64,000 nucleotides of DNA from Candidatus Omnitrophota bacterium (GTDB lineage: Bacteria; Omnitrophota; Gorgyraeia; Duberdicusellales; 4484-171): the NCBI GenBank assembly GCA_041652815.1, contig JBAZGN010000002.1, positions 77,570-141,569 of the forward strand, given 5' to 3'. Below are positions 3,001 through 64,000 of the stretch, in pieces. The position numbers and the translations under genes are program-made. Position 1 is the first letter of the stretch. Each line of letters starts with the position of its first letter. The notes below the pieces were generated by a model, which did not search any database, was not told where the DNA came from, and saw nothing but the letters and a program-made list of their open reading frames with translations.

Positions 3001-6000
3001 GATGTTGGTGGGCGATAACCGGCCGCCTATTGACAATAACTCCATATGGCGAAATGTTTCCTTGTCCCGATGCAGCTGATCCTGGTTCTCAGAAGGCAAT
3101 GGTGCATAACCCCGGCCTAGGGGTTTTGAGGCGCTTTGAAAGCATTGAATCATTACGGGAAGAATTCGAACGGCTTTGGTCAGAGGGGTGTGAAAAGCGG
3201 TTATTGATTTCAAGGGAAAACTGCCATTACTGCGTTCCGTCGCACTATAATTACAATTTGGCATTGGAAAAACTTTTTCAAGATTGGTATTTCGGTATAG
3301 AACCAGAAGACCAGCCATTTGCCGGCTTAGAAGATGAATATTTACGTTCACGCGGTAAGGGGCCGGCTCTCAAGGTTCAAGGTAGTTCTCCTTCTTCGTC
3401 TGTCGTTGTCGGTCACTCGATAAAAGGAACAGCCGGCCCCATTGAAATGGCTGTCCGAAGCATTCTGCATCCCGCCTCTTCTCCCGTAACAAAGGCCGGA
3501 TTTTTTGATATTGATGGAGTGTTATTTAGAAAATGTGACAAAGATAGATATGAAACATTAGGCCGGGATTTTGTTTCTCGCGGTATAGCTAAATTACTTA
3601 GCACCGGAAAGATTTGGGAGAGCGTTTTTGAAACACAAAAATATATGCAGATGATTTTAAGAGGAAGTATCGGCGAGCAAGAATTTATCAGTGCCGTAAA
3701 CGCGAGATTAAGAAAACGCGGCCTCAAAAGAGAGTATCAGACCGCCGAAGAACTTTGGCGAGTATTCTTTAGAATCTTAGAGCCTAATTTTAAAATAGTC
3801 AGGATTTTAAAAACTATGCAGGCTTTAAATATGCCTTGCGGAATAATTTCTGACCGCTTTTTGGGTGATGTTCCAGTTATGATGGAGGCTATTGATGATA
3901 CATTTGTTGGCTTATTTGATAGGGATTTAGTTTTCCATTCCTGCGAACATCGCTTTACTAAGCAAGATGGGGATTTGTTTACTATGGTTGTTGATGTTTT
4001 ACGAGGTAAGCATGGTTTAATTAGCCCTAGTGAGATATTCTTCGTGGACGATAATGAAGATATTCTTACAGTTGCTCGGCAGGTTGGTTTACAAACAGTC
4101 CATTACGTATTTGCTGATGCGGTTGCGCCTGAACTCGACTACCCGATTTTTAGAGAAATTCTTAATAGACTCGCTTCTTCTCCCGCTGACGCCACTTCAC
4201 CTAAACGAAAAATATTGCTTAGCACTGACTTAGGCTTTTTCCCGGATGATTATGTGGCACTGGCGTTACTGCTAAATACTCCTGGAATTGATTTAGCCGG
4301 CGTGTTTTTAAGAGGAACGAAAAAATTCCCAGCAGAACCAGAGCAAGCAGAAAGAATTTTAGCGCTAAGCGGCAGAGCATATATTCCTGTGTATTCTGGC
4401 GTAAAGAAAACTTCTGACTCCATAGCAGAAGCTATAACTAAGGCTAAAGGCAACATAGCAATATTATCTATTGGTTTGTTGACAATTCCCTATAAAGCTT
4501 TATCAAAAGTAATAGCGCAGGGAAATGAAAGATTTCTTAAGAATTTGCGCATTGTGATTATGGGCGGGTCATTTAATCCCTGTGAAGATATGGATGAATC
4601 TGGCTTGACCGAATATAATTTCCGCGGAGATTTAAAATCTACCCAAAAGCTATTTAATTTATTTGAAGCACACCGATTTGCCGATGTCAGGATTACGCCC
4701 TATGAAGTGCTTATGCTAATGAGTGTAAATGAACAGATTAAATTTTTAGCAGGCAAGAAAAATTCTGCGGGCGGAATAGTTGCCGGTAAAATCATTGCGG
4801 CTATTAAATATTTTCGCAGAATTAAAAAACTTTTACCCAAAACCCGTTATAATTTCTGTTTGTTTGACCCGGTAGCAGCAGAAGTTTTAGTTAATCCCGA
4901 TATGTTAGTTTGGCAGCCGGTTGAATTTGCAGAGCTGCCTGTTACAGAAGTGCTCGGAAAAACATTCTTTGGTTTTAAACCCAGCAAAAACAGAAATGTT
5001 TTATGCGCTCTCGATTTCGCATCTAAAGTTAAAGAGGGCGAATTCAGAAAGAAACTTGGCAGCCTTTTTGATGATTTAGCAACGAAAGAACAGATTTCTT
5101 CACCGATAGAAGATAATAGCGTCATTGCTTTACTGCAAGAAACAATGCAGGGGCAGGAAATTTCTGAAGAAGGAAAGAAAAAAATAAAGGAAACCGCCGA
5201 AAGCAAGCCCGAGCTTTTTGGAAGAGTGCTATCAGGAGAGCGACGTGATGGCAATTTTAGAAATGCCGTAGATGATGATGAGCAGATGAAAGCATACCGG
5301 GGCGAGATTGAAGGCAAAATAAGCGAGATTGCAGAAATTGGCCGAAGATTACAAGTAAGAGTAGATATCAGGGATTTAATTGAAGACGCCCTGCAGATGG
5401 TCTTTGCGCTGACTCCGGAATATTTCTTTAAGACATATTATTTGGGCAAGGACGCAGCTAAAGAGCATGGCGTGCTGCATGCCTTGGAGGACTTATATTA
5501 CGGTTTAAGGATTATCGAGAAAGATGAAGAATTAAGGAATATGGCTATTGATTATGAATGCCTGATTTATGCCTGCCTTTTACACGATAGCGCCGGGATT
5601 ATTTCTAGGGTTAACCACAGCACCACCTCGGGTTATTTCGCAAAAGCGTTCCTTGAAGCCATAGGCAAAGAAACATTAGCTGCCAAAACATGGAAAGTAG
5701 CGAATGCACATCACGGTATAGAGGTTAAACAGATATGGGGAGAGGCCGTATATGATAATTGCCCCGAAGCAAGGATTATTAAAGACGCTGATTCGCTTGC
5801 GAGCGGTTTAGACGTTGAACGGCTTTGCAAAATGGTTATTTTATGGAAACCGCAACCGGGTGAATATAAAAACTATATTTTTGACGAAGCATACGGCAAG
5901 AAAACAAGATTAGAGCATTGGAACGTAAGATTTCCGCGGAAAAACGGAATAGTGGTAGAGGCAGAAGAAGAAAAATGGGTAATTAGCAAAAACGACAGGG

Positions 6001-9000
6001 ATTTTATACAATTTTTGCTCGATAACATAGTTTTCAAAACTATGCCTATTTATTATATGACCAAAGGCGCAGCAAGAATTTTGCGTGAAAACGAAAAACA
6101 TAGCGCCTTAGGATTTATTTTGGAGAAAGTAGATGATTTGATTGGCGAGTGGGAAAAGAAATGGAAAATTAAATTTAGCTCCGAAGAAAGAGTTGAAATA
6201 AAGAAGATAATTTCCGATTTATATGAAGAGGCGTTAAGAATAGTATGCGAAGAAAAAAATCTTGACTATACGCAGTTAAGGAGAGAATTTCCTGATATCG
6301 GCCAACGGGCAGTAGGTATATTTAAAATGTGCGCTTCTTCTTCCATAAGCTCACCGTTTACCGGCACAGCAGTAGCGGCCTTGAGCGATGAAAAAGGGTT
6401 TGCGTCTTCGCCATTAGCGGGAAGTTCGAGCGACGCAGAGAAAAGAACGCGGAATTTGAAATTTGCGTTAGGTTTATTATGTAAAAGCGGCGATTGGCGC
6501 AAGGCGGTTGAAGTTATAAATGAAATTGGCGAACTCAAATCGCCCGTTGCAATCACAGAAATAATACGTATTCTTTACCGGGATGATTTAGAAATATTGC
6601 ATCAGGATGCTGTTGCGGCTCTTCACAAAATTGATGTTTCAAAGCTTTCCGCCAAACACTACCGTTTTATCGTCACATTAATTTCCGGATTGATACGCAA
6701 CAGAATTTCCGGCAGCAATTTCGTCGGCATAGACCCGCTTTCCAAAGATTTATTTGAATTATTATGCCATACCACTCGTTCATGGAGCGATATCGAAACT
6801 TTCAGTAATTGGATGCTTACGCGGATAAATATGGTTTCCTACTTTGCGGACGAATATTCACAATCGATGTACATTATGTATTATATGGTTGAAACAGCCA
6901 AAATGTTTGCTGAGCCGGCAGCCGTAGAACTGGTTGTTAAAATCAAAGATAAAGCAGTAAAGTTCAGAAGTTATTTATCTGCCACAAAAATTGTCCGCAA
7001 ACACCGGCTGATTGAAAAGTTAGACGGCCTTATTGATTATGCCGATAGAGTATTAACTTATTTAGAGGCTGTGCCGTTTAACCCGGATAAATTGCAACAG
7101 GTATCTTCGCCCATAGGCAGAAGAGAAGTAGAAAGAATAAGAGGGCTGATTGAAAGAGTTGATGCCCTTGCTGCAGAAGTGAATAAATTAGCATGGGATT
7201 TTTCTCCCGCCGGCAACGAGCACACAATGCTTTCTACGAGAGGTCAGCAATTAATGAGCTTTGGGGAGATAGTCAGGAGCTCGGACACTCTCGACGAAAA
7301 ATATTTTGACTTTTTTAACATTTGGGAAAATTTATTATCTTGTTGGATGAATTTCTTATCCAGGCGTGTACGTAACTCACACGAGGCAGCTTTTAAGAAA
7401 GCAGAAAAAATGCTTCGTTTGAAAATTATCCCGGGATTTGAAGAAGCAATCAAGATGTGGCTGTTTACGAGCGAAGATTATTTAGGCAGATTTTATTTGG
7501 ATTTAGCCATTGTTAGGTTGGAAGAAGCAGAACGTTGCATAGACGAGTCGCAAGGAAAAATTCTCCTGCACAGAGAAGCTATAAGCCGTAGATTCAGACG
7601 GCATCATCTAAGTAATTTAGGAAGCAGCAGATACGAATTGGCAAAATTTGATAATCGCGTTGCTGATTTAGAAAAAATTAAAGCCGAAATAATTAGCGTC
7701 AACGATGAATTAGAACGTTGTCGTTCTGCAGGGTTTCTCGAGAATTTACCTGTAATTATTTCTTCATATCGAAGAGTTAAAAGAATAGCCGGGTTAATTA
7801 ATAGTGTAACAGTAAACGCGTTTTTAAGGATATGTTTATTCGAAAGAGGAAGCCTTATTTCCAGGGCAGAAGCCGACTTGGATGCAATAATAAAAACCGC
7901 CGCTTCAACCTCCAGCCCCCTCATAACCGGCACTTTCCGCACCCAACTTGGCATATTATCCGAAGCAATTGTTATAGATAACGTATTAATAAATACTTTT
8001 TCTTCATCGCCGGTGAGGAATATTTCTAATGGCATCCCTCGTTCCATGAACGCTTTTTTAAAAGAAGCGTTTACGCGTTATGAAAACGAAGGCGCTGCAT
8101 GGGCGAATAACTTTCTTTATCAGAATCATGAAGCCGGAGTATTTGCTGACGGAAGGTCTGCGCGGTCATTTCTTGAAGCAGTAAAAGTTATTACTGCTGT
8201 TGGTGAGCCGGATATGAGAGCCGGTGCAAAATGGATACTTTCTTTAAAGAATTTGCCCGATATCTTAAGCATGCTTAAGCCGGGAGAGCAGGATTGGCTT
8301 AATTATGCCTTAGGCATCGCTTCTCGGCTTGAGCATAACCTTCAGCCATTAAATGTTTGCAAACATAATGGTGACCTGAATAGTGCTTTAAAAAATTGTT
8401 CCTTTCTCTCTGGCGATGAAGGAAAAGTGACGGTTTCAAAATCAGATCCTTTCCACGTTACCCTATGTTATAAGAAAATCCCTGATTTTAAAGGAAAACT
8501 GTATCTTAGGTTAAAGGCTGGTAATAATAAAGAAGAAATTTTGCTTTTTGAAAATGCCAAAAATTATTCAGCAAACAATTCAGAATGCTACATTTGGCAG
8601 ATTGCCCCTTCAGCTTACGATGGATTCCTGGAATTCGATTTCATAATGTTAGATGAATACGGGTCATTTTCTTTATTGATAGACCGCAGAAGATTTAATT
8701 ACATAAATAAGATATCTCCCTTAAGTATACCTATGTTGGGAGTAAATTATCAAGCCGCGGATAGATTAAAAGAAACAAATGTGGTTGCTTATGCGATGGA
8801 AGCTGCTCTTCTGATGCAAACCCTTTCTGGAACCATGGGAGGCGGTTTAGGAATTTTGATGGGAAGTTTTTTACGGGCTTTAAGGTATTCAGGCGCCAAT
8901 GTTTATTTTCCGCTTCTAAGATACGCCAAAGGGATTGAGCAACGCGTAGCAGACGGCAAGCCCCAGGTAGTAAAAGGCGTCAGTTTGGATTATTCGGTTT

Positions 9001-12000
9001 TGGATAATTATGAAGACGAGTTTGAGCGATGGGAGAAAATAAAAGAAGCGGGGATTACGGTAAAAGTAGAAAACAAAGAATACAAAACAAGAGTATCTTT
9101 AGTTCGATTAACGGTTAAGGTAGATAAAGGCACGCCCGATTCTTACATATTATTTATTGATATACCTGAAAATTCTGATATAGCCTCAAATCTTTATCCG
9201 GGGAAACCAACCTCAAAAGAGCGTTTTAGGCAAGCAGCCTATTATTCACGCGCTACATTGGAAGCATTAAAAACTTTAGGTATCAAGCCGGATATATTGC
9301 AAGTCCATGAGTCGTTTCCGGCAGTAGCACTGGTTCCCGATTTGTTTTCCAATGAACATTCGCCTTACGCAAATGATAACTATTTTGACGGCGCAAAAAG
9401 AAATATTTTAGGTTTTTGCCATAGTATCGCCGCCCAAACAATGCCATGGATATTCCCTGGCTATATGGAGCAGATATTGGGTTATTCTCTGCCGGAGGAG
9501 TTGCTTACTACGCGAAAAGCCGACAGTAAGACATACAGAGTTTATGACCCGTTTCACGCTTTAAGCGTGAAAGCAAAAGCTATCGGCACAGTCGGCTTGG
9601 AACACCTTAACGCCATGCAAAGGCTTTTTCCTATGTTTGCGGATAAATATTTTGCGATAGAAGACTCAATCTGGCCTTATTTCTGGATGTTACCTGAACA
9701 AATTGCCAATAAAGGGAGAGTTCTTAGTTTAGAAGATATCTGGCAGGCTAAAGAAAAGACTGAAGCCAGGATGATTGGTTATATAGAGGGCCTATGCGGA
9801 GTAAAGCTCATAGCCGGAAGGCCTACGATAGTTGAAGCTCGGAGAATAGCTGATTTTAAAGACACCCTATTTTTTACCGGCCTTCCGGGAATAATTCTTT
9901 CCGGACAGTTATTATCAGGTATTTATTATCTAACCGCTGCAGTTGAAGAAGGTGGGCTTGGATTTAATCTTGTTTGCGCCGGGAAAGCTCACGAAGACGA
10001 TGAATTAGGGCAAGCCTGGGAAGGAAAACTAAGAGAATTTTCCGATGATCCGCGGCTTAAAGGAACATATGTGTATTTACCCTGGACGACCAACATTTCG
10101 AGGCCCATTATTCAGGGGGCTAAAGTATGTTTGCAAACATCAGTTCCTCCATACGAAGCCGCAGGGATGAAAGATAAAAAAGACATGCTTTGTTATAATG
10201 TGGTAGTTTCAAGTTATACCGGAGGGCCGATACAGCAGATTACCAATGTTTTATACAATAAAGCTGTTGAATATTGGAGAATCTTGAAAGGAAATTCATT
10301 GACAAAGATTATAAGTTTTCTGCTTTGGTTTTTTGGAATAGACCGAGAAAAATATCATCTTGGCAACGGATATCTATTTGAGCCTTTTAGCCAAGCTAAG
10401 CTGCAGGAGTGTATGGAAGACTTATCTGCGCGTTTTTACGCTTATATATACTATAAACAGGAAATAGCCCCGGAACAGGTAAAATCTCCCAATGAACATT
10501 GGTTAAAATTAACTCGCCGCTATATGAAAGAGGATCCAAGTGGGATATTGCAGATTATGCAAAATACTGCAAGGATGCTGCCAGTCTTTGATTCTCGTAC
10601 AGCCGCTTTAAAATTTGCAGCCATCTGGGCTTTTATGCAGGGAGAGCGTTTGGATTATTCGGGTTATGATGAATTCTTGAGAAAAGCTTTAGCAGATTTT
10701 GAAGAAAGGTTATCGCCGAGCTTTAAAGGAGAATTTGCCGCTAATGGTACGGCAAGTTCTTCCGCGCTTGAGGAAACTCGCCATGCAAGGCGCATTGATA
10801 AAATTAAAAATTTTGGCAGGAATATATCTTCCCCAATTAAGGCAGGGTTTTTTGACATTGACGGGGTGCTTTTAAGAAGCCCGCCAAAAGAAGAAAGATA
10901 TACAAGATTAGCCTTATCTTTACAAAAACTTGGGCTAAAAAGCGTTAGCGTTGAAGAACTTCACGAAGCTATTTTTGCCAATGAGGATAATGGTCAACGT
11001 AAGTTAAAGCTTTTGTGCGGGGATATAACCGAAGCTGAATTTATTGCCCAGATAAATCATAACCTAAGGAATCTTGGCTTAAGAACAGATTTAAGCCCCA
11101 AAGAGTTTTACGGGATGTTTTTCAGCGATAGAATGCCGAATTGGCAATTACTCGAACTTTTACTAATAATGAAGGCGTTAGAAATGCCAAGAGGCATTAT
11201 TTCTGACCGCCTTCCGCAAGACGCAGCAATAATGATGGGAAAAGTAAAAGGAGGTTTCCCGAAATTATTTAAAAACCACCGCCTTATTTTCCATTCATAC
11301 GAACATCATCACACAAAACACGAGGTTGAGTTTTTCAATCTGGCCGCCAAAGTATTATATGAACAATTTGGCATTACGCCACAAGAAACTTTCTTTGTTG
11401 ACGATAAGAAATCTATTATTGAAATAGCAAAACAAGCCGGTTTTCAAGCCATTCATTATGCTTTTAACGATAAGATTCCTCCGGAACTCATTCACCCTAT
11501 TTTTAAAGAAATTCTTGGTATGGCTGTTTCCAGCCCCATTTCAAAAGCAAATGTTCAGGTTGAGTTTGTTCCCGCAGATAAAAAATATGCTGGCATACAT
11601 TCTTTATATCAAGTTTTTGCTGTATCCCTTGAAGGGGGTTATGGAGTTACTGTTCGTTGCGGTATACCACATCCTTTTCTCCCGGGTGAATTTCAACCAT
11701 CCTGCGGTGAGATTAGATTTATAAAGGTAAGCAAAGAAGATTTTCCTACAGCAAAGCCCCAGGCACGTATCGACGCCGAAACTAGGGCAATTGAGGTAGA
11801 CCGCACTTCTGATTTGGGTAACATTGCCAGAAGAGGCGCTGCCACGGTTGTTGTTTCAGACGGCACAAGGCCTAAAACCGATATTTTAGAAGAATGGGCT
11901 TCTGCTTTAGCAAAGAAATCACTATTAGGCTGGGAATATACGCCGATAATAGGTTCCGGGATTGAGGAAGAAGATATGTGGACTATTGCAAACAGCGCTT

Positions 12001-54000: not shown

Positions 54001-57000
54001 ACCCTGATGGCCTATATCTTAATGTGTCGTCAAGTTGTATCTCGGACGCGACTATACCGGAAAAAATAGAGCTAGAAATTCCTGTTGAATGGTATTCGGA
54101 TGATTCCGTGGTATCAATAAAATTGGCTACCCCCCTGGAAGGGGACCCTATAATCAGATATGCACAGGCATCAATTACTCCTCTTGAATATCAAGTTGAT
54201 TGCCTTTTAGAAATCGTTGAGCATATTGAGCCTAATGCTGTGATGCTTAATTTAGGCTGCGGTGTAAACCTTATACGAAACAGATGGAAGCTACGTGTTT
54301 TAGTATATAATTTCGATTATCAATATTCAGCAGTATGCCCCGAATATGAAGCGGCACGTATCGGTGCGAATTACAGAAAATATGATTGCAGTGAATTATC
54401 TTCTTGGGTGGAAAGCTTTAAAGTCGGTAATCCCCATTGCTTAATACAATTCATTCTTCTTGCCAAAGATATGTGTTTTTGGTTTGGCCAGTATTTTTCG
54501 GACAAACGGTCATTGTACCAGGCCAGGCATATTCACGGGATTTTGAGAAACGCCTGGAAAGCGCTTGAAGGGCCTGCTGCCTATATAATCGTAACTTCTC
54601 CGGGTTGCGATAAGTATTTGCAATATCTTTCAGCTTTTTCTCCCGGATTGACGAAAATTATTGTTGTCGGTGCAGCGCTTGGAGATTTCAAAAAAGCAAA
54701 AGCTGTATTATTTCAAAAAGAGAGCACCAGCTCACCTCTTTTTGCCAAAACTTCTCAGGCGAGCCAGATGGTTTTACGCTGCGTGGACACTACCAAAGAG
54801 CCTTGTTGTATCAACCATCAGGCAGTCAGGGATATCGTTGAGTTATGCGAGAAAGATAATAGTTTTCTGGGAATATTTGCTGATGTTATCGTTAAATATT
54901 TAAGTGACGATAATTTATTATTGAGAAATGTACTCTATGAAATCGTTGAAATGTTAAATGGCCATAGTTGTGCCAGGAAGTTGCCTACGCTTTTCGCTGA
55001 GTTATTAGCCAGAAGGCTTCCGGGGGATGAATTGGTAAAATTATTAGCTAAGTGTTCTCATGTAAACGCAGAAATGGTGCCGGACGACAATAAGACCACA
55101 TTCCCGCCATATGTTAAAAGCGGATATGTGCAAGGCGATATTGATTTAAGCCATGAAGAGCCGGGTTTAATTTTAAAATTATATAGGCATGCACGATATT
55201 ACTACATAGAATATCAGGGTAAAAAGGCAGAATATAAAGGAAAAATAATTGGCTTTGTACAAACCTACCGTCCCAGCGTAGAAGACATAATATTTTTAGG
55301 CATTCGTGTTTTTGAGAGAGTTGAACCGGGAATAGGCACTACAGTAATGCGTTGGGCCGCAGAATGGGCAGGCAGTAATGGTAATGTTGTTTTTCAGTAT
55401 CCTGTTGATGAAAACTATATCAGATTTATGCTGCACTGTGAGCGCGAAGGAATATTAGATGCTATAGAAATTGCACTGCTTCCTATTGCGGAAATACCGT
55501 TTATACCCCATTCTGCTTTATGCCGCTTGCCGCAAAAATATACACCGGACGAACAATCTTTCTGGCAGAGAGTAAATAATATTGAACATGTTGCGGCGTT
55601 AAGGCCTAAATTATCTCCCGGCACAAATATTTTTGTCCGGGGAAAAGTAACCTCAAAAAATACCAGTTCAACCGAGGCCAGCTCGCCGCTTACTGACGTA
55701 AATGCATATCTGACAAGTTACCTTGCAAAATATGTAACCAGAAGCAGTAAATTTGGAGAAAAGGAATTGAAGCTGCAAGAGAAATACGATAGGCAACTAA
55801 CTTTGAATTTGCCAAAATTTGATGAGTCTGATTTAGCTGTCGCCATAGAACATATTATGGATAATGCCGTGCATTTCTCACCGCAAGGAGGAGTGATAAC
55901 CGTAATGACAAGCTATGAAGTTAAAAATCGAAAAAGAAAAGCGGTAATCGCGATATCCGATAACGGTAAAGGTATTGATGTAGCGCAAATTGTAGAACGT
56001 GCGCTCGCAAGAGGGGTTATCTCCAAAGAAAAATTAAGAAAAATGACATATAGACAAATATTCCAATTGGTTTTTTTACCCTTTATTACCACCAAACCAC
56101 AAGGCTTTGGAGGCTGTGGCCTAGTTTGGGCGAAGATAGCTATAGAAAGGAATAAAGGAGCTATTAAAATACATTCAAAATGGGGTAGCGGCACCACAGT
56201 ATTTATTACCTTATCTATTATGCACATCGCTTCTAGCCCCACCCTCGAAGAAAGTGACGAACAAATAAAAGCACGTATTATGGCTGTTATAGAGGAGTAT
56301 AACTTTTGTCGCCGCCGAGCGCGTGAAATTTGGTTGGAGTTCGAACCGAATTTTGATTTACCGCTTGAAATTTCCGGAATGCTTGGAGTAGCTACTGGCC
56401 ATATTGATAGAATTCCTCCGGAATTTCCTACAGCATTAACAATGTTGAGAAAAGGCATATCTCGATATGAGCGATTTATGGATGAGCTTAGAGGGCGTAA
56501 TACAGAAGTAACTCTTGCCAAAGCCGAAGCATTAAATAGCGCATTAATTCTTCTTGATTACGCAAAATCTAAGTTAGAATCAGCTGTCTCTATGCTTGAA
56601 GCGCATCTCAGCACGAATGGTACCGAAAATACTTCAAGTGCTGTTTCGTATATAGAAGGGAGAGAATCATTCGAATATAAATCGTCCATCAGACAAAATA
56701 ATAATTCTCGGTTGCGGCAGAGTTCAAAAGGGCGGTTTGCCTCTCCGTGGCTGGTGGGGGCCGCCCTCTCTGCCGTAACCGTTTCTTCGCCAATACAGAA
56801 TGGTAATGGAGATAATTCAGAGAAACAGAACAGTGAGTTTACTACCGCAACAATGCGGTTACGACGCCTCAAGAGCGAAGCGGAAATTATCCAAAGCTTA
56901 AAGTCGCTTCTGGCGCAACTGCATTTGTTAATGCCCAACGATAATGAAAATGGCAACGGGAATATATATCTGCCAATGTTAGCCAACCAAATTGATTCAT

Positions 57001-60000
57001 TAAATGGTTGGGGAGGAATTTTGCAAAGAGTAAGAAATGATTTCCGGGGCGAGAGAGATGTGCAATCTTTAGCAAATATCTGTATGCTGGAAAAAGCTTT
57101 AGGCGTTTCTATCGACGATCAGGCAGCTTCAGAAAGCACGCCACCAGAGGCAAAAGAACAGGCATATTTAGCTTTTGTTGCGAATGCCCGCGCTGAAAGA
57201 ATACTACGTGAAACAATGCGTACAAAAATGGGGCTAAGTAGGCAACAGCTAAGACATTCACGCAAGATGGCAGCAAGGCGCGAAAAGGCAAGAATTGCCG
57301 AGCAAAAAGCTCAGCAAGCCGCAAAGCCAAGGCATAGCCCAAGAGCGTTAGCAAAAGAAACTCGAGAAGATGCGAAGCAACAAGAAAAGTTAGCTCAACA
57401 AAAAGAAAAAACGCACAACAAAGCATTAAAAAGACAAAATAAATACTATAGGGCTCACCAGAGAGAACTCCGGCGTAAACGCCGTAAGGTCTGGCTGTGG
57501 GCTAAAAAAGCTTCTCGTTCCCGGAAAACAAATACAATTATACTTAGCGATATAGAAAAGTTGGTAGCAAAAAAACATTTCAGCCCCACCTATTATTCTC
57601 TTCTTACTATTGCTAGAGAATTAAATTTAAGCCCGCCGCAGGTGTGGCTTATCGCAAAAAAAGTTTTGTTAAAATATTGGATTTCTGCTTTAGAACGGCC
57701 CAATCCTAAATATTCAATCGAAGAACTCGAAACTGCTGTAAATCCGGTTGCAACGCTTTCTCTAATTGTAAATACACCTTTTGTGCGCCAGTTACTTTGG
57801 AGAAACAATCAGCTGGAATTGCCTGTTATTCCTTTAGATTTTAATCCAGCAACGCCAGAAGAGTTTTTAACGAGGCTGCAAGCGCTTTTAAATATTCTGG
57901 AGATAATGGAAGCAACTTACCAAGAAAGTTCAATGTTTGATGAACTTTTCTTCGTTACAGAAACGCTGCAGCATTTGGCTTTAGCCGGAGAAATAAAAGC
58001 TGTTGTGCGGTATAATTTAGTGCGCTTGCGCCATACCAGTGCCTATAAAGCGCAGCCGGATAAAGCTTATCTAGAACGGCATATCTCTCGAGCAGATTTA
58101 GCTCATGAAATAGGAACTAATTCGCGCACAATTGCCTGGGTAGAAAAAGGCCAAGAGCGCGTTCCTTACTCTATGGAACTTTTAGGCAAAATTATACGTT
58201 TATTGGCATTCTCCGGCAAATTCGAATTAGATTACGCAAATACTTCATTGCCCGGCAAGGCTCAAGCTGTTGTAGGCTTACTTTGTGATAACCGAAACTT
58301 AGATTTGTCTTATAACATAGTTCTTGCTGCCAGAACAGTTAATACCGGGCTGGCTTTGCGCGCGGAAAATATTCTGATTTCTTCGCAGAAAATAAATACT
58401 AATTTTGTTGCAGCCTCTGAGAAAAGTAAACAAAAAACCTATGCCGCAAAAACTGAGCTGCTTCTTCCGCAAAGAGGGTACCCTTGGGAGTTAAGAGGCC
58501 AGGCTGCCGCTATTTTCCGATTAAATTTAAGGCTCGTATTAGAACAAGGGACTACCGTAACCAGAGCGCAGGGAAAAGGGGAGAAAAGTAATTCCAAAAA
58601 AGAAGCGCTTATGTCTTATAGAGATATAGCGCAAAGCATACACCGGCCGGTTTCTTTTGTGCTGGCAGTTGCACAAAATCGCCATGACGAAGGAAAGCTC
58701 TGGATTTTTAATGTGGATTCTATTTTGTCGTATCTTGCCTCATCACGGGTTATTTTATATGCTATCAGCCAAGACCCGCATAAAAGTTTCGAGGATGTAT
58801 TAAGGCTAATGTTTAATGTCGATAGTATGGCAAGAATGAGAGGTATTATCGAACAGGTAGAGGCGATTAATGGAAATAGGGCTGCAACTATTACTAACAT
58901 TTCACCCGAGGAAGCAGTTTTATCAGGAATGTATAAGCAAGGAAAAGAAAAGCGGTTTGCAGGCGCGGCCTTAGAGCGTTTAGGGGGAAATTTAAAAACT
59001 ACAATGCAGGCTGTTTCTATTTGCGGGAAACCTCTTACTTATAAACGCTTGGCAGATTTGTTGCACATATCTCTTAGGCAGATTAAAGGGATTGCTGCAG
59101 CCGAAAGGCCTATTACTTATCCTGCGGCATACAGTATTATCTGGACGTTTTCTGGATTACGGTATCAGGAAGGAAAAGACAGGGAAAATCTTTTTAAAGA
59201 AACAACGGATTTACTATTTTCATCCTCTTCGCCTATTCAGCCAAAGCGTAATAGTCAAGATAAAGGTAAAATAATAAGGCCGCGCAGCTCTCAACAAGTA
59301 GAAAAAATGATTGAGACGGCAATGGGACTGGCTCCTTTGCCGCGTATTTCAATGCTGTGGCATGCTAATTTGTTCCATAATTCCGAATATGATTGGAGAA
59401 ACAGTTTCATTATGACAAAAATCGCAAAAGCGTACGTTAAGCTTGATAATTATAGCAGAGCAGAAGCATGGTTATTGCGTGCCGTAAAAGCGGATATGCA
59501 CCTTTTAGCTCTCAGCCGCAGATACCCTTACGATCGTTTCCGTGAATATGCGTTTCACAGCCAGGCAGTAGGTTATTGTATGCTTTCCCAGTTTTATTTA
59601 GATTGTGCAAACAAAGGAATAGATTCGAATCGTATGTTTGAAATGGCACAAATGGCAATTATGCGCGCAGTTAAAATTGATTCTTATCGCAATAATCATG
59701 ATCTTAGGGTGGCAGAACAGCGAGATAAAGTTTTCGCAATTACAGGAAAAGCTTCATCTCCTGCGCCCAATGAAAGTGATGTTCCGGTAAATAAGCATAT
59801 CTCTATTCCTTATACCGTAAAGCGCGGCGATATTTTTCATTCAGGAAGAAAAATTGAACTGATGATTTTTGAAATTAATCGTGGATTTATTGTATTTGAA
59901 ATATGCAGGCCTAACCAGGATTTTATTGAAGGAAAAGGCCCGAGAGGCCCGCCAGCTTACCATGACAGAAGAACTGTAACTGCCAACAATCGCACCGTAC

Positions 60001-63000
60001 AAATTATTCCCGGATTTAATATACGGGTCGAGAAAATAAAAAATAGCAAAGCTTATATCCATCTTATCTCTCCCGCCAACCGTCAATTTGAGGAAGGACA
60101 AGTTCCCGAACGAGGCTCAAGCCCTGTAAAAGCTGATACAACAAAAAATAAACGAACCGCTGAAACATATCGAAGGCAGGCAAAAGTTTTTAAAACCGTA
60201 CAACGGCTTGCAAAGAGAAGGCATAACACCGCCAATTGTAATATAACAGTTTCCGAAGTGGCCGCAGAATTAAAAGATACATTAAGCCGTAGGGCTGTCG
60301 GTAAGGACTTGTTAAGGCTTGAGGAATTTCATTTATTGACAGGTAACCGCAGAAACAGAAAAAATATTTGGACATTTTGGTTGGCAAAAGATATTGGTAC
60401 CTTTACGCGTCAGGATTTAGATTGGCTTACTCAATATATTGAACGTGTTAACAATAATACGCGATACGTATCAAAGCTTTTCGAAGCAGCTATTGGCCAG
60501 TACCCGAGGGATATACGGCTTGGAGCGCTACATAGACAATTTACCGAACTTTTGCAATCTGATGATGCAGCGGCCTTAGCATTTATCCGAGACGCAGCAA
60601 AATTTTTGGATTACCGTGGCCCATACGAAAAACAAATTCAGCTTGCCGGCATGTTGTTTTTTTCGCAATATGTCCCCTCCGGCTATTTATTCATACCCCA
60701 ATCAGTGAAGCACAAAAGAAAGAATCTAAAAAAAGAACGGCTTTTAACAGGAGAGGAATTATATTTACAGCGGATAGGCGAGTACCCACTTTTATCTGCT
60801 CTCGCAGAGGTGGTTTTATGTATAAGGGCGCGATACGGCGATAAAGAAGCTACGCAAAGAGTGTGGGAGTCAAACCTGCGGCTTGTAGTAAGCATTGCAA
60901 AAAAGTATGCAAAGAGATATAGATTTGCCCTCCTGGATTTAGCGGACGTAGGAAATATCGGGCTACGCAACGCAATACCTAAATTTGAACCGCAATTAGG
61001 TTTTAAATTCAGTACCTATGCCACCTGGTGGATACGCCAGGCAATACTGAGAGAAATTGAAATGCAGCGAACGCAGATTCGTATCGCAGGGAAACAGCGG
61101 GATACAGATGAAGAATTCAGGAGACTTTGCCTTACGAAATTTGGCATTGACCCGGCAAGCCCTCAGGCATCACCTGAAGTGTCCCCTGTGCATATCGCTG
61201 AAATTACCGGCGTTCCCGTTGAAGAAGTTGAAGATTACCGCCGGCGCAGCTTGCCAATGCCGTCAATTGATCAAGCGTTTTCCGGAAAGGATAAAGATGA
61301 ACCGGAAGCAACATTTAAAGGTAATTTAGGAGAGGAAGACGAGGCCATTGATATTATGACTATCCGTAGAGTGATAGAAGAAATTATTGCAAGGACTGAT
61401 TGGGCGCTTACGCGAAAGTGGAGGAAAAGCCCCAATCGCGGAAGAGATATGTTAATTTGGAAGTTACGCGTAGCAGATGATTTATTGGGCGCAGTGGGTG
61501 CGGAAGAATCTTTGACATTAGAAAATACCGCAAAGCGTTTATATGAGCTCGGCTATACTGGGGAATCAAAAGATAAGCCATTAACAAGAGAAAGAATACG
61601 ACAAATAGAGATAAAGATAAGACGTGTGCTTGAGCCAATTGCGGTTGACGTTTTAAAAGATGCCGGCATGGGCGTAGATTTCCTTAGTCTTTACGAAAGC
61701 TTCTCGGAAAAATCTCAGGGTGGAATTAATGAAACTGCCGCCAGCTCGCCGGCACCGCAAACCGATAATTCCCATATTCCTTATCCGAGAAAAGGGTCAT
61801 CTTTAGAGCGCCAGCGTAGGCTGCAAGATTTTATTAAAGAGCATACATTTACCCATAGCCGGCTTGTTAAGTACGGCATGCATCCTACACGTTTACCTTT
61901 CGAGATATTAATCAAAGCTTTAAACGAACTTGAACTGCGCTTCGGCGGTCCCGGAAGTTTGAGAGGTAAACGGCTTCTTGATTTAGGAACTGGTGACCTG
62001 CGAGTGGGGCTGGCAGCTGCCTATCTTTATGGTATGTATGTAACTGCGGTAGAAATTGATGAGGATGTGCACAAAAAAGCATTTGAAGTTTATAGGAAGG
62101 CACAGGCACAAGGTTTTACTGAAAGACTTACCTTTATAGATAGACCCCAAAATGCCTTTGGCCTTCGATGGGAAAAGAATGGGGAGAATTTCGACATTGT
62201 ATTTTTCTTTTATACTGAGCCCGCTCAAGACGTTGCGATATGGAGGAAAACTCTTAAAGCTTGCACGAATACTTTGAAACCAAGCGCTGTCTTGGCTATT
62301 GTGGCTAATGAAGTTAATAAAAGCCAAGGGCAAAAATATAATGTTGACGAGCTTAAGGCGCTTTTTATAAATTCACCGCAGGAGATGTATATTGGCAGCC
62401 ACAATGATCTCGGTAATCTTTATGTTTTTTATCCCGATAATTCCGCAAGCTCGTCGCTTAATAATGGCAAAAGTTCCAGCATCGCCACGCAGAATCAGAA
62501 TAATGCTTTGGTAAGCTCAAGCCCCCTCTCGCAAAATTTATGGCCGGCTGTAATAAAACGCATTACAAACTCTCTTTATTATGACAAATTGGTTTCTGTC
62601 GGTATGGCTATACCAGTGTTATCGGCTGATGACACTTTATATTCCCGTTTAAGCCATATTTGTAGAGTCGAAACAGCTGCAAAGCTCTGGGCGCAAAAAT
62701 GGCGTAAAGGCTTATGCAATCGCGTTAAGCTGCAGCCGGATATAATTACATTTTTCGCTATTTGCCAACAGCTTGGCGCTGCTGCTTTTGCGAATTATAC
62801 TGGAGAGGTTTTAAAACTTAACGGAAATAATTCCGGAGAGCTTCATTTTGCACAGGCAATTGTCCATGATTTATGTCATTCCAAGAGAGCAACACTGAAT
62901 TCAATACAGGGCTATTTACAGGAAATCCAGCAACTTGCTTTGGAGAATATTCCTAATTTATCTTTTGAAGCCAAATTCGTCGTAGCCAGCAATGTGCTTA

Positions 63001-64000
63001 TAGGCTTAATTGAGGATGTTGTTTTTGCCCGGCGGCTGGGTTTAATAGATGAGCAAAACGCTAATCAACCCTTATGTGTATTTGAACAAAGGTTTGGCGC
63101 AAATAGCCTAAACCGCGTTGATACCTTATCCGATAATAATACTAATGAAAGAATAAGCTATATAGCCGTAAATTTTATAAATAGATTTAATGGCAGGCTT
63201 GATTATGAAACATTAAGGCAATTAAGTAGATTGCATAACGATGTAATTACGGTTATTAGGGAAAGGCTGCGCCAGATTTATAAGGTAGAGGCGTTTAGTG
63301 AAGCGGCAAATAAAGTCTTTATAGCTTTAAAGACGCATCTACGCAATAATTTACAAGCTGTATGTATGGAATTTCTCAAATTAGGAGAACCGCAATTGCT
63401 TAACCGGGCAGCTTGTTTGGAGAATTTGCCTCCACAACGCTGGAAACAACATTTAAAAAGAATTCAAGACACTGGTACGGCCGCAGTAGGTTTTGCACAA
63501 ATTTCGCGGATGTACTTGATAGAACATAGGCCGATAAGAAGAATAAGCGCTGAATTCGGCATAGCCGAACCCCTTGTTTGGTTAATGACCCGCCGCGCGC
63601 AGATAAGGCACCTAATGCGAAATTCTTTACCGCTGGAGGAGGCATTGCGCCGCATTGAGCCCCTCCTAACCTTGCATACAATAGTAGACATTCCTTTTGT
63701 TAAGAAAGAGCTAGGCATAAATAAAGAGTTTGCCGAATTGCCGGAAGAAATTACCGAAGCTAATGTTCGTAGCGTGCTTAAAAGCTTAGAAGAATTCTTA
63801 CAAATACTTGAAGATACTTACGCTAATCCCGCAATGCCTTTTGATAATTTATTTTCGGTTGCTTTAATGAATTATAAAGAGCGTCTCGCGCTTTGCGGGC
63901 CTCTAGCGGCAATAGTAAGATATAATCTTAGTTTTGCAAGGAATAGCGGCATAAATAAAAGCATTGCCGCAAAGTCAAAGCATGGCCATTATATAACCTG
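3..64000 (+). CDS. Internal fragment of a giant multidomain ORF. It is open at both window edges, has at least 21,332 codons and no in-frame stop.
   Basis: Frame with codon starts divisible by 3. Verified codon by codon for 3-692 ([11 protein letters not shown]...[20 protein letters not shown]) and 63951-63998 (...[16 protein letters not shown]). The remainder was read continuously with no TAA/TAG/TGA met. The supplied ORF track has zero entries in this frame, while every listed + ORF starts at a position with start mod 3 = 1 or 2. Dozens of canonical enzyme motifs read cleanly in this single frame across all 64 kb. Confidence 0.85.
690..1650 (+). other. Domain: radical SAM core with a C-terminal Cys-rich SPASM/twitch-like extension (copy 1).
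   Basis: CxxxCxxC at 723-746 ([13 protein letters not shown]). Gly-rich [10 protein letters not shown] at about 885-910. Downstream Cys cluster PPCCHLTY...SCSICPP at about 1470-1620. Confidence 0.78.
2200..3260 (+). other. Domain: radical SAM core with a SPASM-like Cys cluster (copy 2, tandem to copy 1).
   Basis: CxxxCxxC at 2259-2282 ([12 protein letters not shown]). [13 protein letters not shown] motif at about 2410-2450. Cys-rich tail CWWAITG...[11 protein letters not shown]...[10 protein letters not shown] at about 3000-3245. Confidence 0.72.
3495..4130 (+). other. Domain: HAD-superfamily hydrolase (copy 1).
   Basis: Motif [10 protein letters not shown] at about 3501-3527. C-terminal [10 protein letters not shown] at about 4040-4070. 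It follows an SSP linker ([16 protein letters not shown]). Confidence 0.7.
4210..5050 (+). other. Domain: inosine-uridine nucleoside hydrolase-like.
   Basis: N-terminal [21 protein letters not shown] resembles the DxDxxxDD aspartate cluster of IU-nucleoside hydrolases (cf. DCDPGHDDAxAL). [13 protein letters not shown] follows downstream. Confidence 0.4.
5380..5830 (+). other. Domain: HD metal-dependent phosphohydrolase-like.
   Basis: [11 protein letters not shown] (H-D dyad at about 5583-5588). Downstream [13 protein letters not shown] acidic motif at about 5775-5810. Confidence 0.45.
8700..10330 (+). other. Domain: alpha-glucan (glycogen) phosphorylase-like, GT35-like.
   Basis: [17 protein letters not shown] at about 8838-8880 resembles the phosphorylase GNGGLGRLAACFLDS motif. 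[17 protein letters not shown] at about 10140-10190 resembles the E-A-S-G-x-x-x-M-K PLP-lysine region. Confidence 0.42.
10840..11470 (+). other. Domain: HAD-superfamily hydrolase (copy 2), paralogous to 3495-4130.
   Basis: [18 protein letters not shown] at about 10826-10870. [10 protein letters not shown] and C-terminal [10 protein letters not shown] at about 11390-11415. The whole module is collinear with copy 1 (GIISDRF..., FHS(Y/C)EH..., FFVDD..., Q(T/A)(V/I)HY(V/A)F). Confidence 0.7.
15650..16900 (+). other. Domain: Glu/Leu/Phe/Val amino-acid dehydrogenase-like.
   Basis: [10 protein letters not shown] at about 15765-15795 (compare the GDH catalytic-Lys GGxKGG box). [16 protein letters not shown] at about 16250-16300 matches the ELFV dinucleotide-binding GFGNVG motif. 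Confidence 0.45.
17700..17760 (+). other. P-loop NTPase Walker A motif.
   Basis: [17 protein letters not shown]. GxxGxGKST at 17727-17750 was verified codon by codon. Confidence 0.5.
20410..20485 (+). repeat. Copy 1 of a roughly 75-nt conserved element (peptide [25 protein letters not shown]).
   Basis: The 13-nt tcggttgcggcag is shared with the copies at 34810 and 56708. ccgtggctggtgg is shared with all copies. ctgccgcagccg is shared with copy 2. Confidence 0.7.
23260..24450 (+). other. Domain: B12-binding-like N-terminal module plus radical SAM core (class B-like, copy 3).
   Basis: Rossmann-like [12 protein letters not shown]...RIIGGAHAS at about 23260-23600. CxxxCxxC at 23895-23918 ([14 protein letters not shown]). 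Downstream AIEFGIEN...YYLAGLPQE is typical of radical SAM TIM-barrel strands. Confidence 0.68.
33020..34450 (+). other. Domain: CBM48 (E-set) followed by a GH13 alpha-amylase-family catalytic domain.
   Basis: [21 protein letters not shown]...GDIWEITIP at about 33020-33200 (CBM48 pattern FxVWAP..V.V.GDFN..W...GxWE). GH13 region [14 protein letters not shown] at about 33640-33680. Region [13 protein letters not shown] at about 33843-33875. Confidence 0.65.
34810..34885 (+). repeat. Copy 2 of the roughly 75-nt conserved element (peptide [25 protein letters not shown]).
   Basis: tcggttgcggcag...ctcttccgtggctggttgg...ctcttgctgccgcagccgct. Near-identical nucleotide strings to copy 1. Confidence 0.7.
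36950..38700 (+). other. Domain: GH77 4-alpha-glucanotransferase (amylomaltase/MalQ-like).
   Basis: Three family-typical boxes. [18 protein letters not shown] at about 37085-37140 (compare SPYxxxSAFAxNPLxI). [17 protein letters not shown] at about 37900-37950 (compare the LRIDH nucleophile box). [11 protein letters not shown] at about 38433-38468 (compare the EDLG acid/base box). Confidence 0.7.
39700..39960 (+). other. Domain: GHKL-type ATPase-like (anti-sigma/Ser-kinase-like).
   Basis: [12 protein letters not shown] (N-box-like) ...[25 protein letters not shown] (G1-like DxGxG). Confidence 0.4.
42280..42900 (+). other. Domain: MutS-family (domain V) ABC ATPase-like.
   Basis: Walker [21 protein letters not shown] at about 42404-42445 closely resembles the MutS ITGPNMGGKSTYMRQ box. 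Walker-B-like [18 protein letters not shown] at about 42640-42690 (compare MutS DExGRGTSTxDG). Confidence 0.55.
43726..43776 (+). other. SEC-C zinc-binding motif.
   Basis: [16 protein letters not shown] is near-identical to the SecA C-terminal SEC-C consensus ([15 protein letters not shown]). Confidence 0.75.
44100..44460 (+). other. Domain: possible class I SAM-dependent methyltransferase fold.
   Basis: [18 protein letters not shown] (motif I-like hhDhxxGxG) ...[10 protein letters not shown] (motif II-like). Confidence 0.3.
45810..46800 (+). other. Domain: eukaryotic-type Ser/Thr protein kinase-like fold, possibly a pseudokinase.
   Basis: Gly-loop [12 protein letters not shown] at about 45834-45870. 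VAIK-like RYAIKVY at about 45895-45915. Catalytic-loop position reads [13 protein letters not shown] at about 46296-46330, where the HRD Asp position is read as Glu. DFG position reads LIDSDGT at about 46350-46370. Subdomain [15 protein letters not shown] at about 46536-46580. Confidence 0.55.
47260..47640 (+). other. GHKL-ATPase-like module, copy A of a tandem paralogous pair.
   Basis: [10 protein letters not shown]...[34 protein letters not shown]...[22 protein letters not shown]. Confidence 0.45.
48080..48500 (+). other. Domain: class I SAM-dependent methyltransferase.
   Basis: Motif [18 protein letters not shown] at about 48160-48215. Downstream [10 protein letters not shown] and GGKIFIF are motif II/III-like. 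Confidence 0.55.
49330..49700 (+). other. GHKL-ATPase-like module, copy B (paralogue of 47260-47640).
   Basis: [10 protein letters not shown]...[37 protein letters not shown]...[22 protein letters not shown]. Collinear with copy A. Confidence 0.45.
51160..51990 (+). other. Domain: endonuclease/exonuclease/phosphatase (EEP) family.
   Basis: [19 protein letters not shown] at about 51286-51320. LGGDFNT at about 51688-51710. [12 protein letters not shown] at about 51945-51975. Confidence 0.65.
52000..52680 (+). other. Domain: SGNH/GDSL hydrolase.
   Basis: Block [12 protein letters not shown] at about 52015-52045. Block [11 protein letters not shown] at about 52318-52340. Block [12 protein letters not shown] at about 52605-52635 (DxxH). 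Confidence 0.65.
53380..53650 (+). other. Domain: GHKL ATPase-like (RsbW/SpoIIAB anti-sigma-factor-like).
   Basis: [48 protein letters not shown]-box E..N...HA and G1 box DNGPGM. Confidence 0.45.
55150..55450 (+). other. Domain: GNAT acetyltransferase-like fold (tentative).
   Basis: [47 protein letters not shown] resembles GNAT motif A (V-x-x-x-x-R-x-x-G-x-G). Confidence 0.35.
55840..56220 (+). other. Domain: histidine-kinase-type HATPase_c catalytic ATPase.
   Basis: N box [12 protein letters not shown] at about 55852-55885. G1 [10 protein letters not shown] at about 55950-55980. G2 [13 protein letters not shown] at about 56095-56130. G3 [11 protein letters not shown] at about 56184-56215. 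No convincing upstream H-box was found. Confidence 0.7.
56708..56785 (+). repeat. Copy 3 of the roughly 75-nt conserved element (peptide [27 protein letters not shown]).
   Basis: tcggttgcggcag...cctctccgtggctggtggg...ctctgccgtaaccgtttct. Confidence 0.65.
57120..57500 (+). other. Lys/Arg/Gln/Ala-rich highly basic low-complexity segment.
   Basis: ...[81 protein letters not shown]... Confidence 0.5.
57560..58060 (+). repeat. Internal protein-level repeat module, copy 1 (homologous to 63500-64000).
   Basis: ...[12 protein letters not shown]...[41 protein letters not shown]...[17 protein letters not shown] is collinear with ...[11 protein letters not shown]...[42 protein letters not shown]...[17 protein letters not shown]. 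Confidence 0.55.
58070..58200 (+). other. Possible XRE/Cro-type helix-turn-helix.
   Basis: [42 protein letters not shown] (compare the Cro/C1 pattern LSQxxLAxxxGVSxxxIsxxExG). Confidence 0.4.
60750..61650 (+). other. Domain: sigma-70-family RNA polymerase sigma factor, regions 1.2/2 through 4.
   Basis: [14 protein letters not shown] (region 1.2). [18 protein letters not shown]...[43 protein letters not shown] (regions 2.1-2.4, verified codon by codon at 61002-61040). [15 protein letters not shown] (region 3). [15 protein letters not shown]...[19 protein letters not shown] (region 4.2 HTH, about 61500-61645). Confidence 0.8.
61900..62350 (+). other. Domain: class I SAM-dependent methyltransferase (second copy of the fold).
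   Basis: Motif [20 protein letters not shown] at about 61965-62020. Motif [14 protein letters not shown]. Post-II FDIVFFF. Confidence 0.55.
63500..64000 (+). repeat. Internal repeat module, copy 2 (paralogue of 57560-58060). It continues past the window edge.
   Basis: See the alignment under 57560-58060. The AIVRYNL / AVVRYNL signature is shared. Confidence 0.55.

Follow-up and report, generated by a model that had tools for sequence, protein, structure and literature searches.

How does a single bacterial gene come to span more than 21,332 codons, and of what parts is it made? The question is raised by a stretch of 64,000 nucleotides (nt) from a Candidatus Omnitrophota bacterium (NCBI GenBank assembly GCA_041652815.1, contig JBAZGN010000002.1, positions 77,570 to 141,569 of the forward strand), referred to below as the window, which is filled by one stop-free reading frame. 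An initial annotation, made from the sequence of the window, had noticed several internal repeats and had proposed that the gene grew by module duplication, driven by recombination. The analysis described here points to a different balance. The window belongs to a giant multi-enzyme gene whose modules are joined by a short Ser-Ser-Pro (SSP) motif, and which in all likelihood owes most of its growth to the accretion and shuffling of heterologous modules and only a minor share to duplication.

One reading frame across the window

Frame +3 contains no stop codon across 63,996 nt, and the remaining five frames contain 768–1859 stops each. No further open reading frame (ORF) of note is listed in the 64-kb window beyond frame +3. 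The GC content stays at ~41–44% throughout, GC skew is steadily positive on the coding strand, and in amino-acid composition the ORF resembles ordinary globular proteins. What the window covers is part of the interior of a giant gene.

Domain scans with Pfam and NCBIfam showed that at least 22 distinct Pfam families tile the ORF. None is dominant, the maximum being three copies (radical SAM, methyltransferase), and all Pfam-matching modules match in one and the same frame. The series comprises radical SAM with SPASM, radical SAM/Fer4_12, HAD, inosine-uridine nucleoside hydrolase and HD domains; a starch-synthase-like GT5, a second HAD, a Glu/Leu/Phe/Val dehydrogenase, a cupin, and B12-binding with radical SAM; CBM48, GH77 (E 5e-43), a MutS domain V ATPase and an SEC-C motif; and a Ser/Thr kinase, a methyltransferase, EEP with GDSL, HATPase_c, sigma-70 and a second methyltransferase. 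Families of the tandem-repeat-scaffold or dockerin type (TSP3, dockerin, WD, HEAT) had no Pfam match in the window, where Tandem Repeats Finder returned micro-repeats only. The RpoD/RpoS-like sigma-70 factor is nearly complete, with profile positions 45–307 of the 329 in the RpoS model aligned, and it is hard to see how a sigma factor embedded in such a polypeptide would bind RNA polymerase unless it were released.

A five-residue motif marks the module boundaries

The boundaries of the modules came into view when the two HAD copies of the gene were aligned, as SSP stands at the start and at the end of both. The window ORF contains 59 such tripeptides, compared with 3.7 expected from composition (a 16-fold excess) and 14.8 under a first-order Markov model. 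The residue at position -1 is G, A, S, V, I or T in 59/59 cases (P = 1e-25), and that at position +1 is V, A, L, I, T or S in 56/59 (P = 2e-18); positions farther from SSP than these carry no information. The nine nucleotides that encode SSP vary freely, with 43 different 9-mers, serine codons of both the TCN and the AGY type and all four proline codons in use, so that selection acts on the peptide.

All 59 SSPs fall outside Pfam envelopes, where 10.5 would have been expected within them (P ~1e-5), and 10,000 randomisations never brought the N-termini of domains as near to a preceding SSP as they are in the window. Many of the gaps between SSP and domain are very small, at 0–2 amino acids (aa) for HAD, 4 for the cupin, 9 for the nucleoside hydrolase, 10 for the kinase and 12 for SEC-C. 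Two other roles were considered for the junctions and rejected. Neither Met codons nor Shine-Dalgarno signals are enriched there, so that the junctions do not act as internal translation starts and the modules are not hidden cistrons. Nor are the junctions structured RNA in general (Mann-Whitney P = 0.23).

Relatives share single modules and part of the junction grammar

The GTDB species representatives contain no exact match to a 50-mer of the window, and the JGI metagenome contigs contain none to a pattern taken from its hairpin element D1, which places the source genome in neither collection. HMMER searches of 1.84 billion representative proteins with the GT5 module and the second HAD module gave 121 matches. 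The best matches to the GT5 module are 43–61% identical over the best-matching stretches and 41–47% over the full module; they are partial proteins of 868–7452 aa, and nearly all are named as products of Candidatus Omnitrophota or Omnitrophica metagenome-assembled genomes (MAGs). Back-translated patterns from an alignment of these matches were used to retrieve loci, 12 of them from genomes and 3 from metagenomes (the latter including a weak 31% match), mostly Omnitrophota MAG contigs. Fourteen were confirmed as relatives, and almost all of these consist of one stop-free ORF over the full fetched length, up to 20.7 kb.

We then compared the window with the 14 loci (no more than ~6,900 aa each; BLAST covered 11 of them and phmmer all 14) and with the 121 database proteins. 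Two modules are shared and no others, namely the GT5 module and a module at aa 16597–16780. In both cases homology to the relatives stops at the SSP boundaries, and every neighbouring module is different. The gene is thus a mosaic in which single modules recur in different surroundings.

Two of the retrieved loci show further features. In locus L001 (4040–5725), the shared GT5-type module is followed by SSP and then by another GT5 domain, this one of the canonical starch-synthase type (E 3e-43); the position after the shared GT5 module is held by HAD in the window and by this second GT5 in L001. In locus L006 (7211–14126), the giant ORF stops at nt 7368, and two further ORFs, of 898 and 1,438 aa, lie downstream as separate units in the same orientation. 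Few other places would allow the 3' end of a giant gene of this kind to be studied.

The motif itself is found in a subset of the relatives. SSP occurs 5 times in L001/P0003 (0.27 expected), 8 times in L005/P0005 (1.0 expected) and 6 times in P0094 (0.44 expected), and P0007, P0008, P0009 and P0011 have 2–3 each, 15–18 times expectation. In the SSP-bearing relatives the GT5 module has SSP at both of the boundaries where it stands in the window. None of the 19 SSPs in L001, L005 and P0094 lies inside a Pfam domain; they bracket guanylate kinase, GT5, CofD, HAD and EamA. Loci L002, L004, L007, L008 and L013 are without the motif, its place being taken at the equivalent sites by generic linkers, and the SSP-poor relatives show no enrichment of any other tripeptide. 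Neither of the two papers on giant genes (West-Roberts et al. 2023, bioRxiv 10.1101/2023.11.21.568195; Nielsen & Lui 2026, bioRxiv 10.64898/2026.06.07.730766) mentions SSP, cleavage sites or a polyprotein, and the junction hairpin described below is likewise absent from the text of both. Junction grammar and junction hairpin are previously undescribed.

What might recognise the motif? Its five strict positions, its placement between complete proteins of stand-alone size, and the presence of modules that would need freedom, such as the sigma factor, suggest that SSP is read by an enzyme, most likely a processing protease. We favour this reading, about equally with one in which SSP is not a processing site and serves either as a passive flexible or helix-breaking linker or as a site of glycosylation or phosphorylation that protects linkers. 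The linker is a strong contender that we would place only slightly on the doubtful side. In other lineages the same boundaries are occupied by generic linkers (SGSG, TASN, TSP, QSP) and the ORFs are still fused, the tripeptide SSS is also enriched in the window (5.8x), no peptidase domain was found there in the Pfam and NCBIfam scans, and the SSP-bearing relative L005 includes a PMT_2 glycosyltransferase module. However, a passive linker would have no need of three invariant residues with constrained flanks at -1 and +1, and these have been kept despite switches between TCN and AGY serine codons.

Five paralogous pairs of ancient origin

The extent of duplication within the gene was determined by self-comparison, using BLASTP of 400-aa chunks and phmmer of modules, with a set of 51 modules of at least 80 aa. 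Ten of the 51 form five paralogous pairs, which account for 11.8% of residues, and the other 41 have no paralogue within the window. All five pairs show 23–42% amino-acid identity and 40–57% nucleotide identity. Where residues are identical between paralogues, the codon is shared at only 34–52% of them, and synonymous sites are near saturation. The three pairs that the initial annotation had reported were all recovered at the protein level, along with two more and one weak pair outside the five (20886–21212 vs 25866–26270, E 8e-4). Each duplicated unit is an SSP-to-SSP module, or lies at matching offsets within one.

The duplicated HAD module, as reported initially, is the clearest case, with 42% identity over 241 aa (E 1e-52) between copies that lie 7.3 kb apart. 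The motifs FDIDG, ISD and FVDD (HAD motifs I, II and IV) are conserved in both. Copy 1 scores 33.0 bits against PF00702 (cut-off 26.4) and copy 2, at 25.1 bits, falls slightly below the cut-off. Among homologues from the 1.84 billion representatives, the two copies form a sister pair in 199/200 neighbour-joining bootstraps, and outside relatives are at most 37–38% identical to copy 2 and 28–30% to copy 1.

A second pair consists of two neighbouring radical-SAM modules (E 2e-9 to 1e-11). The third and fourth pairs lie interleaved. A methyltransferase-like region (X) and a methyltransferase module (X') are 26.5% identical (E 1e-16 to 4e-17), at corresponding offsets of 139 and 145 from the module start. 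The modules Y and Y' had been described as tandem GHKL-like modules with a shared tail. Their homology (31–32% identity, E 8e-32) and the common tail GV(L/F)TEAWFY are real, but the two are not strictly tandem, as a methyltransferase module lies between them. Both carry DxGxG and GxGxG motifs resembling those of GHKL proteins, and the label derives solely from these motifs. Neither has a match in Pfam, NCBIfam or PDB, hhalign to the HATPase_c of the window itself gave a probability of 1.2%, and an AlphaFold2 model built from the two sequences reached a predicted local distance difference test score (pLDDT) of 32. The word-indexed protein search, which is insensitive below ~40% identity, gave no match for Y-X'-Y' at E 1e-3, none for aa 14401–19400 at E 1e-8 and none for HAD copy 1; HMMER did recover HAD relatives.

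The order X..Y is collinear with X'Y', with two modules, one of them a kinase, between X and Y. This fits the duplication of a two-module block followed by insertion or loss. Within Y and Y', an 18-nt patch (47598–47615 and 49650–49667) is identical and encodes TEAWFY (ACC GAA GCC TGG TTT TAT), in modules that are otherwise 47% identical at the nucleotide level; the patch could reflect local gene conversion, or strong constraint plus chance.

The fifth pair involves a helix-turn-helix (HTH)-containing region and its paralogue 5.9 kb away (30% identity, E 2e-12 to 7e-14). A PDB profile search with the HTH-containing module gave no match. This pair had been noted as a repeated C-terminal module; the repeat is genuine, but the name is wrong, since the ORF has no stop in the window. 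The positions of all these features are collected in Table 1.

Table 1. Features of the window, with positions counted from its first nucleotide.
Feature	Position (nt)	Strand	Remarks
Single stop-free reading frame	3..63998	+	21,332 codons, open at both window ends; 0 stops in frame +3; at least 22 Pfam families
Junction motifs [GASVIT]-S-S-P-[VALITS] (n=59)	489..62525	+	last at 62517-62525; ~60 modules, mean spacing ~360 aa
Radical-SAM module	657..1385	+	module aa 180-577, with SPASM; paralogue of adjacent module
Radical-SAM/Fer4_12 module	2193..2948	+	module aa 578-1127; adjacent tandem paralogue
HAD module, copy 1	3477..4184	+	aa 1159-1394; SSP on both sides; FDIDG, ISD, FVDD kept
GT5 (starch-synthase-like) module	8004..10826	+	aa 2668-3608; common to window and Omnitrophota giant proteins
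HAD module, copy 2	10827..11537	+	aa 3609-3845; flanked by SSP at each end; 42-44% identity with copy 1
Exact 22-nt repeat, copy 1	12596..12617	+	peptide QCQLTFH
Exact 22-nt repeat, copy 2	13157..13178	+	561 nt (187 codons) downstream, in frame
Hairpin D1a	20409..20486	+	followed directly by degenerate junction VSLP
35-nt element, copy 1	26115..26149	+	micro-tandem CAGATGT x2.4 at 26131-26147
35-nt element, copy 2	29436..29470	+	micro-tandem TCAGCTA x4.1 at 29451-29479
Hairpin D1b	34809..34886	+	15 aa past SSP11588; core in different codon phase
Methyltransferase-like region X	44121..44915	+	in module aa 14560-15119
Module Y (initially labelled GHKL-like, copy 1)	46980..47675	+	module aa 15623-15901
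Methyltransferase module X'	48165..48962	+	module aa 15902-16322; Pfam Methyltransf_23/11/12
Module Y' (initially labelled GHKL-like, copy 2)	49008..49727	+	module aa 16323-16596
Shared module	49791..50342	+	aa 16597-16780; 36% identity to L011, L012, L014; homology bounded by its SSPs
Hairpin D1c	56706..56789	+	ends exactly at junction SSP18928
HTH-containing region, copy 1	57609..58088	+	in module aa 18928-19741
SSP-delimited module with RpoD/RpoS-like sigma-70	60117..61742	+	aa 20039-20580; regions 1.2 to 4; RpoS model E 1e-41
Paralogue of HTH-containing region	63543..63998	+	module aa 20839 onward; window end cuts region

How the gene grew

Duplication covers 10 of the 51 modules, and relatives share single modules with different neighbours, which argues that the gene grew mainly by accretion and shuffling. 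Some 60 self-contained and mostly enzyme-sized modules are strung into one polypeptide, joined by the five-residue motif, and in this scheme the SSP-to-SSP module is the unit of evolution that is duplicated and exchanged whole. Of five whole-module duplications, two would have been local, giving the radical-SAM tandem and the X..Y / X'Y' block, and three would have spanned 5–8 kb or are of uncertain distance; all copies have diverged since then to 23–42% identity. The duplications would be intragenic and the recombination breakpoints would fall at the junctions.

Among the alternatives, similar modules could each have entered the gene by a separate recruitment, the sources being related stand-alone genes or further giant genes. 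Modules do move between contexts, as the GT5 and 16597–16780 modules adjoin different neighbours in relatives, and HAD modules of the same family are found in other Omnitrophota giants at 28–38% identity. Against this, the two HAD copies of the window are each other's closest relatives in the bootstrapped tree, Y and Y' have no other relative detectable by the word-indexed protein search, and the collinearity of X..Y with X'Y' and the adjacency of the radical-SAM pair are what local duplication predicts. We regard independent recruitment as unlikely.

Slightly less likely still is the proposal that the gene expanded chiefly by recombination-driven duplication of modules, with short identical strings as its recent footprints and substrates. 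The five paralogous pairs and the identical TEAWFY patch speak for it, as does an exact 22-nt repeat that exceeds shuffled controls. At the nucleotide level, off-diagonal signals above all 20 codon-shuffled controls (maximum 38.3 bits) were indeed obtained, for the hairpin element D1 (58 and 56 bits), the TEAWFY patch (44.6 bits), HAD (43.7 and 39.2 bits) and the exact 22-mer (41.0 bits). The 22-mer had been described as an identical string of 21 nt; the exact repeat is there, but it is 22 nt long and lies 1–4 nt from where it had been placed. Its copies are located inside a 1,256-aa module (aa 3843–5098) without a recognisable domain. They are 187 codons apart and share a reading frame, which the loss of the intervening sequence would leave intact. 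The second string, described as an element of roughly 45 nt, does have two similar copies, but these extend over 35 nt at 83% identity, and their score of 37.4 bits is borderline, as 1 of the 20 shuffles reached 38.3. The 7-nt micro-tandem reported for each copy of this element was found in both; its unit is out of frame, so that slippage by one unit would truncate the giant protein.

These strings do not, however, carry the weight placed on them. No homology between copies was found in the flanks of the 22-mer or of the 35-nt element, and no exact direct repeat in the window is longer than 22 nt; the strings are isolated, and neither collapse nor misassembly at repeats is a realistic worry. 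Neither are the module copies footprints of ongoing expansion, as they are ancient by both nucleotide identity and codon sharing, with synonymous sites near saturation. Growth by module duplication thus holds for the five pairs but explains only those 10 modules, ~12% of residues, and 41 modules remain without a paralogue. Duplication as the main mechanism is largely refuted. The observations in the initial annotation were largely right, and its interpretation was right in kind but wrong in weight and age.

That the repeats or the giant ORF itself are assembly artefacts (collapsed or chimeric repeats, or a frame held open by error) is hardly credible: giant genes are hard to assemble, but with a longest exact direct repeat of 22 nt and paralogues at most 67% identical in nucleotides there is nothing to collapse, 21,332 consecutive sense codons are beyond chance, all Pfam-matching modules share one frame, and the same architecture is seen in independent MAG contigs.

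Growth by accretion and shuffling in an Omnitrophota multi-enzyme gene has several points to contend with. Four of the five pairs lack an outgroup, and intragenic duplication as opposed to separate recruitment is unproven for these. A number of relatives were assigned to bins of Planctomycetes, Gastranaerophilales or Deltaproteobacteria. In the 21,332 aa a Kyte-Doolittle scan picked up only ~3 hydrophobic segments, all weak (near aa 1418, 14690 and 18483), and SecA_DEAD, C39, NUDIX and HEAT were not found in the domain scans of the window, which contains only the SEC-C motif. Both gene ends lie outside the window, placing the total length, the N-terminal features and the stop codon beyond view. 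The SecA_DEAD, peptidase and transmembrane (TM) features of published giants may lie there as well. The stretch at hand looks cytoplasmic.

A conserved hairpin at the junctions

The strongest nucleotide repeat of the window is a hairpin, D1. No other 80-nt stretch of the window folds as stably as its three copies, which reach -37.6 to -46.1 kcal/mol compared with a mean of -14.2 (standard deviation 4.5). A covariance model built from these copies identified one further copy in the giant ORF of L006 (5812–5901, 36.5 bits, E ~1e-7) and another in that of L005 (13346–13432, 19 bits, E 0.002–0.02 depending on the amount searched). D1 is thus 78–90 nt in length and present in the giant ORFs of three different Omnitrophota genomes. 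The pairing of its outer stem of 12–14 bp is kept while the sequence differs in each genome, and the apical CUUCCGUGGCUGGUGGGG is invariant. Across the five copies the core is translated in all three phases, as PWLV, as RGW(L/W), and as SVAGG preceded by SSP, which places the constraint on the nucleic acid.

Each of the window copies has an SSP no more than 30 aa away, which is true of 16% of residues (P ~0.004), and both copies in the relatives are also located in junction regions. No further copies were found in the window with filters off, and Rfam gave no gathering-level match there; a relaxed E-value returned generic hairpin matches only. Four matches to the core in viral contigs are without a hairpin and were set aside as chance, as was a one-mismatch core at 33066, which lies inside CBM48 and likewise has no hairpin. 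D1 could be a signal for mRNA processing or pausing, a recombination site, or an in-frame mobile palindrome.

The octamer GCTGGTGG, which is the E. coli Chi site, occurs in junction contexts only. It lies inside every full D1 core (at 20450 and 56750 in the window) and in two 25-nt junctions of L005 that are identical in nucleotides and encode SSPVGALV (3885–3909 and 6612–6636). As an enriched signal it was rejected, since it shows no overall excess (2 occurrences in the window against an expected 0.87), and its presence at junctions may be coincidence.

Combining motif and hairpin, we tentatively raise the possibility, doubtful as it still is, that a clade of Omnitrophota encodes a true bacterial polyprotein, in which SSP junctions would be the recognition sites for releasing or individually controlling ~60 enzymes and regulators, the sigma factor among them, and D1, with its core CUUCCGUGGCUGGUGGGG, would act as a nucleic-acid boundary signal on the giant mRNA or its DNA, serving in processing, pausing or module recombination.

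Significance and comparison with known systems

Internal duplicates in the giant genes of Omnitrophota have already been reported, which makes duplication itself ordinary; the junction grammar and the hairpin are of more interest. Marking all recognisable domain boundaries of this gene and recurring at the same ones in some relatives, the SSP motifs provide concrete candidate cut points and a rational way of splitting giant proteins for structure prediction, and a prediction of cleavage at SSP is directly checkable by N-terminomics. The SSP-to-SSP interval defines the unit in which these genes duplicate and exchange parts. A conserved, structured, in-frame nucleotide element at the junctions is a new lead on the expression or rearrangement of genes of 60–250 kb.

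The window gene belongs to the 'multi-enzyme' class of Omnitrophota giants. Archaeovorins carry GT5, methyltransferases, glycoside hydrolases, radical SAM, HATPase_c and HAD (West-Roberts et al. 2023), and 'multi-enzyme metabolic clusters' have been described for Omnitrophota giants, along with the observation that at least one Pfam family is repeated in 65% of long proteins, the repeats being old and diverged (Nielsen & Lui 2026). With at least 21,332 aa, the window ORF passes the threshold of at least 10,000 aa used in the Nielsen & Lui catalogue, and whether it passes the threshold of at least 30,000 aa used by West-Roberts et al. depends on sequence outside the window. Like these giants, the window gene is a single ORF of tens of kilobases with many non-dominant Pfam families. 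The shared repertoire includes GT5, methyltransferases, HATPase_c, HAD, HD, radical SAM and glycoside hydrolase. Divergence of the domains is high, old diverged duplicates of some families are present, and the nearest relatives are Omnitrophota MAG proteins. It differs from them in other respects. Published giants have ~1 TM helix per 1,000 aa, SecA_DEAD and an N-terminal C39 or S8 peptidase, whereas in the window almost no TM helix is predicted, the SecA_DEAD, C39, NUDIX and HEAT families are missing, and cytoplasm-type modules (sigma-70, MutS-like, radical SAM) are present.

The megasynthases of nonribosomal peptide and polyketide synthesis are likewise encoded by bacterial ORFs of great length and modular build, whose evolution proceeds through duplication and recombination of modules. 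They are, however, assembly lines made of homologous repeats of a few domains, whereas 41 of the 51 modules in the window are mutually unrelated enzymes. Processed polyproteins such as those of picornaviruses and birnaviruses resemble the window gene in having enzyme-sized units in one ORF and a short, strictly conserved motif with small flanking residues. The window gene is bacterial and at least 10x longer, its junctions are putative cleavage sites, and the domain scans of the window found no peptidase domain. The hairpin also has parallels. Rickettsia palindromic elements and elements similar to repetitive extragenic palindromes resemble D1 in being short palindromic repeats, present in multiple copies and in frame within coding sequence. 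D1 differs from both in its invariant apical core of 18 nt, in stems that covary across genomes of 36–48% GC, and in its low copy number of only 3 per 64 kb, with its copies tied to the junctions between modules.

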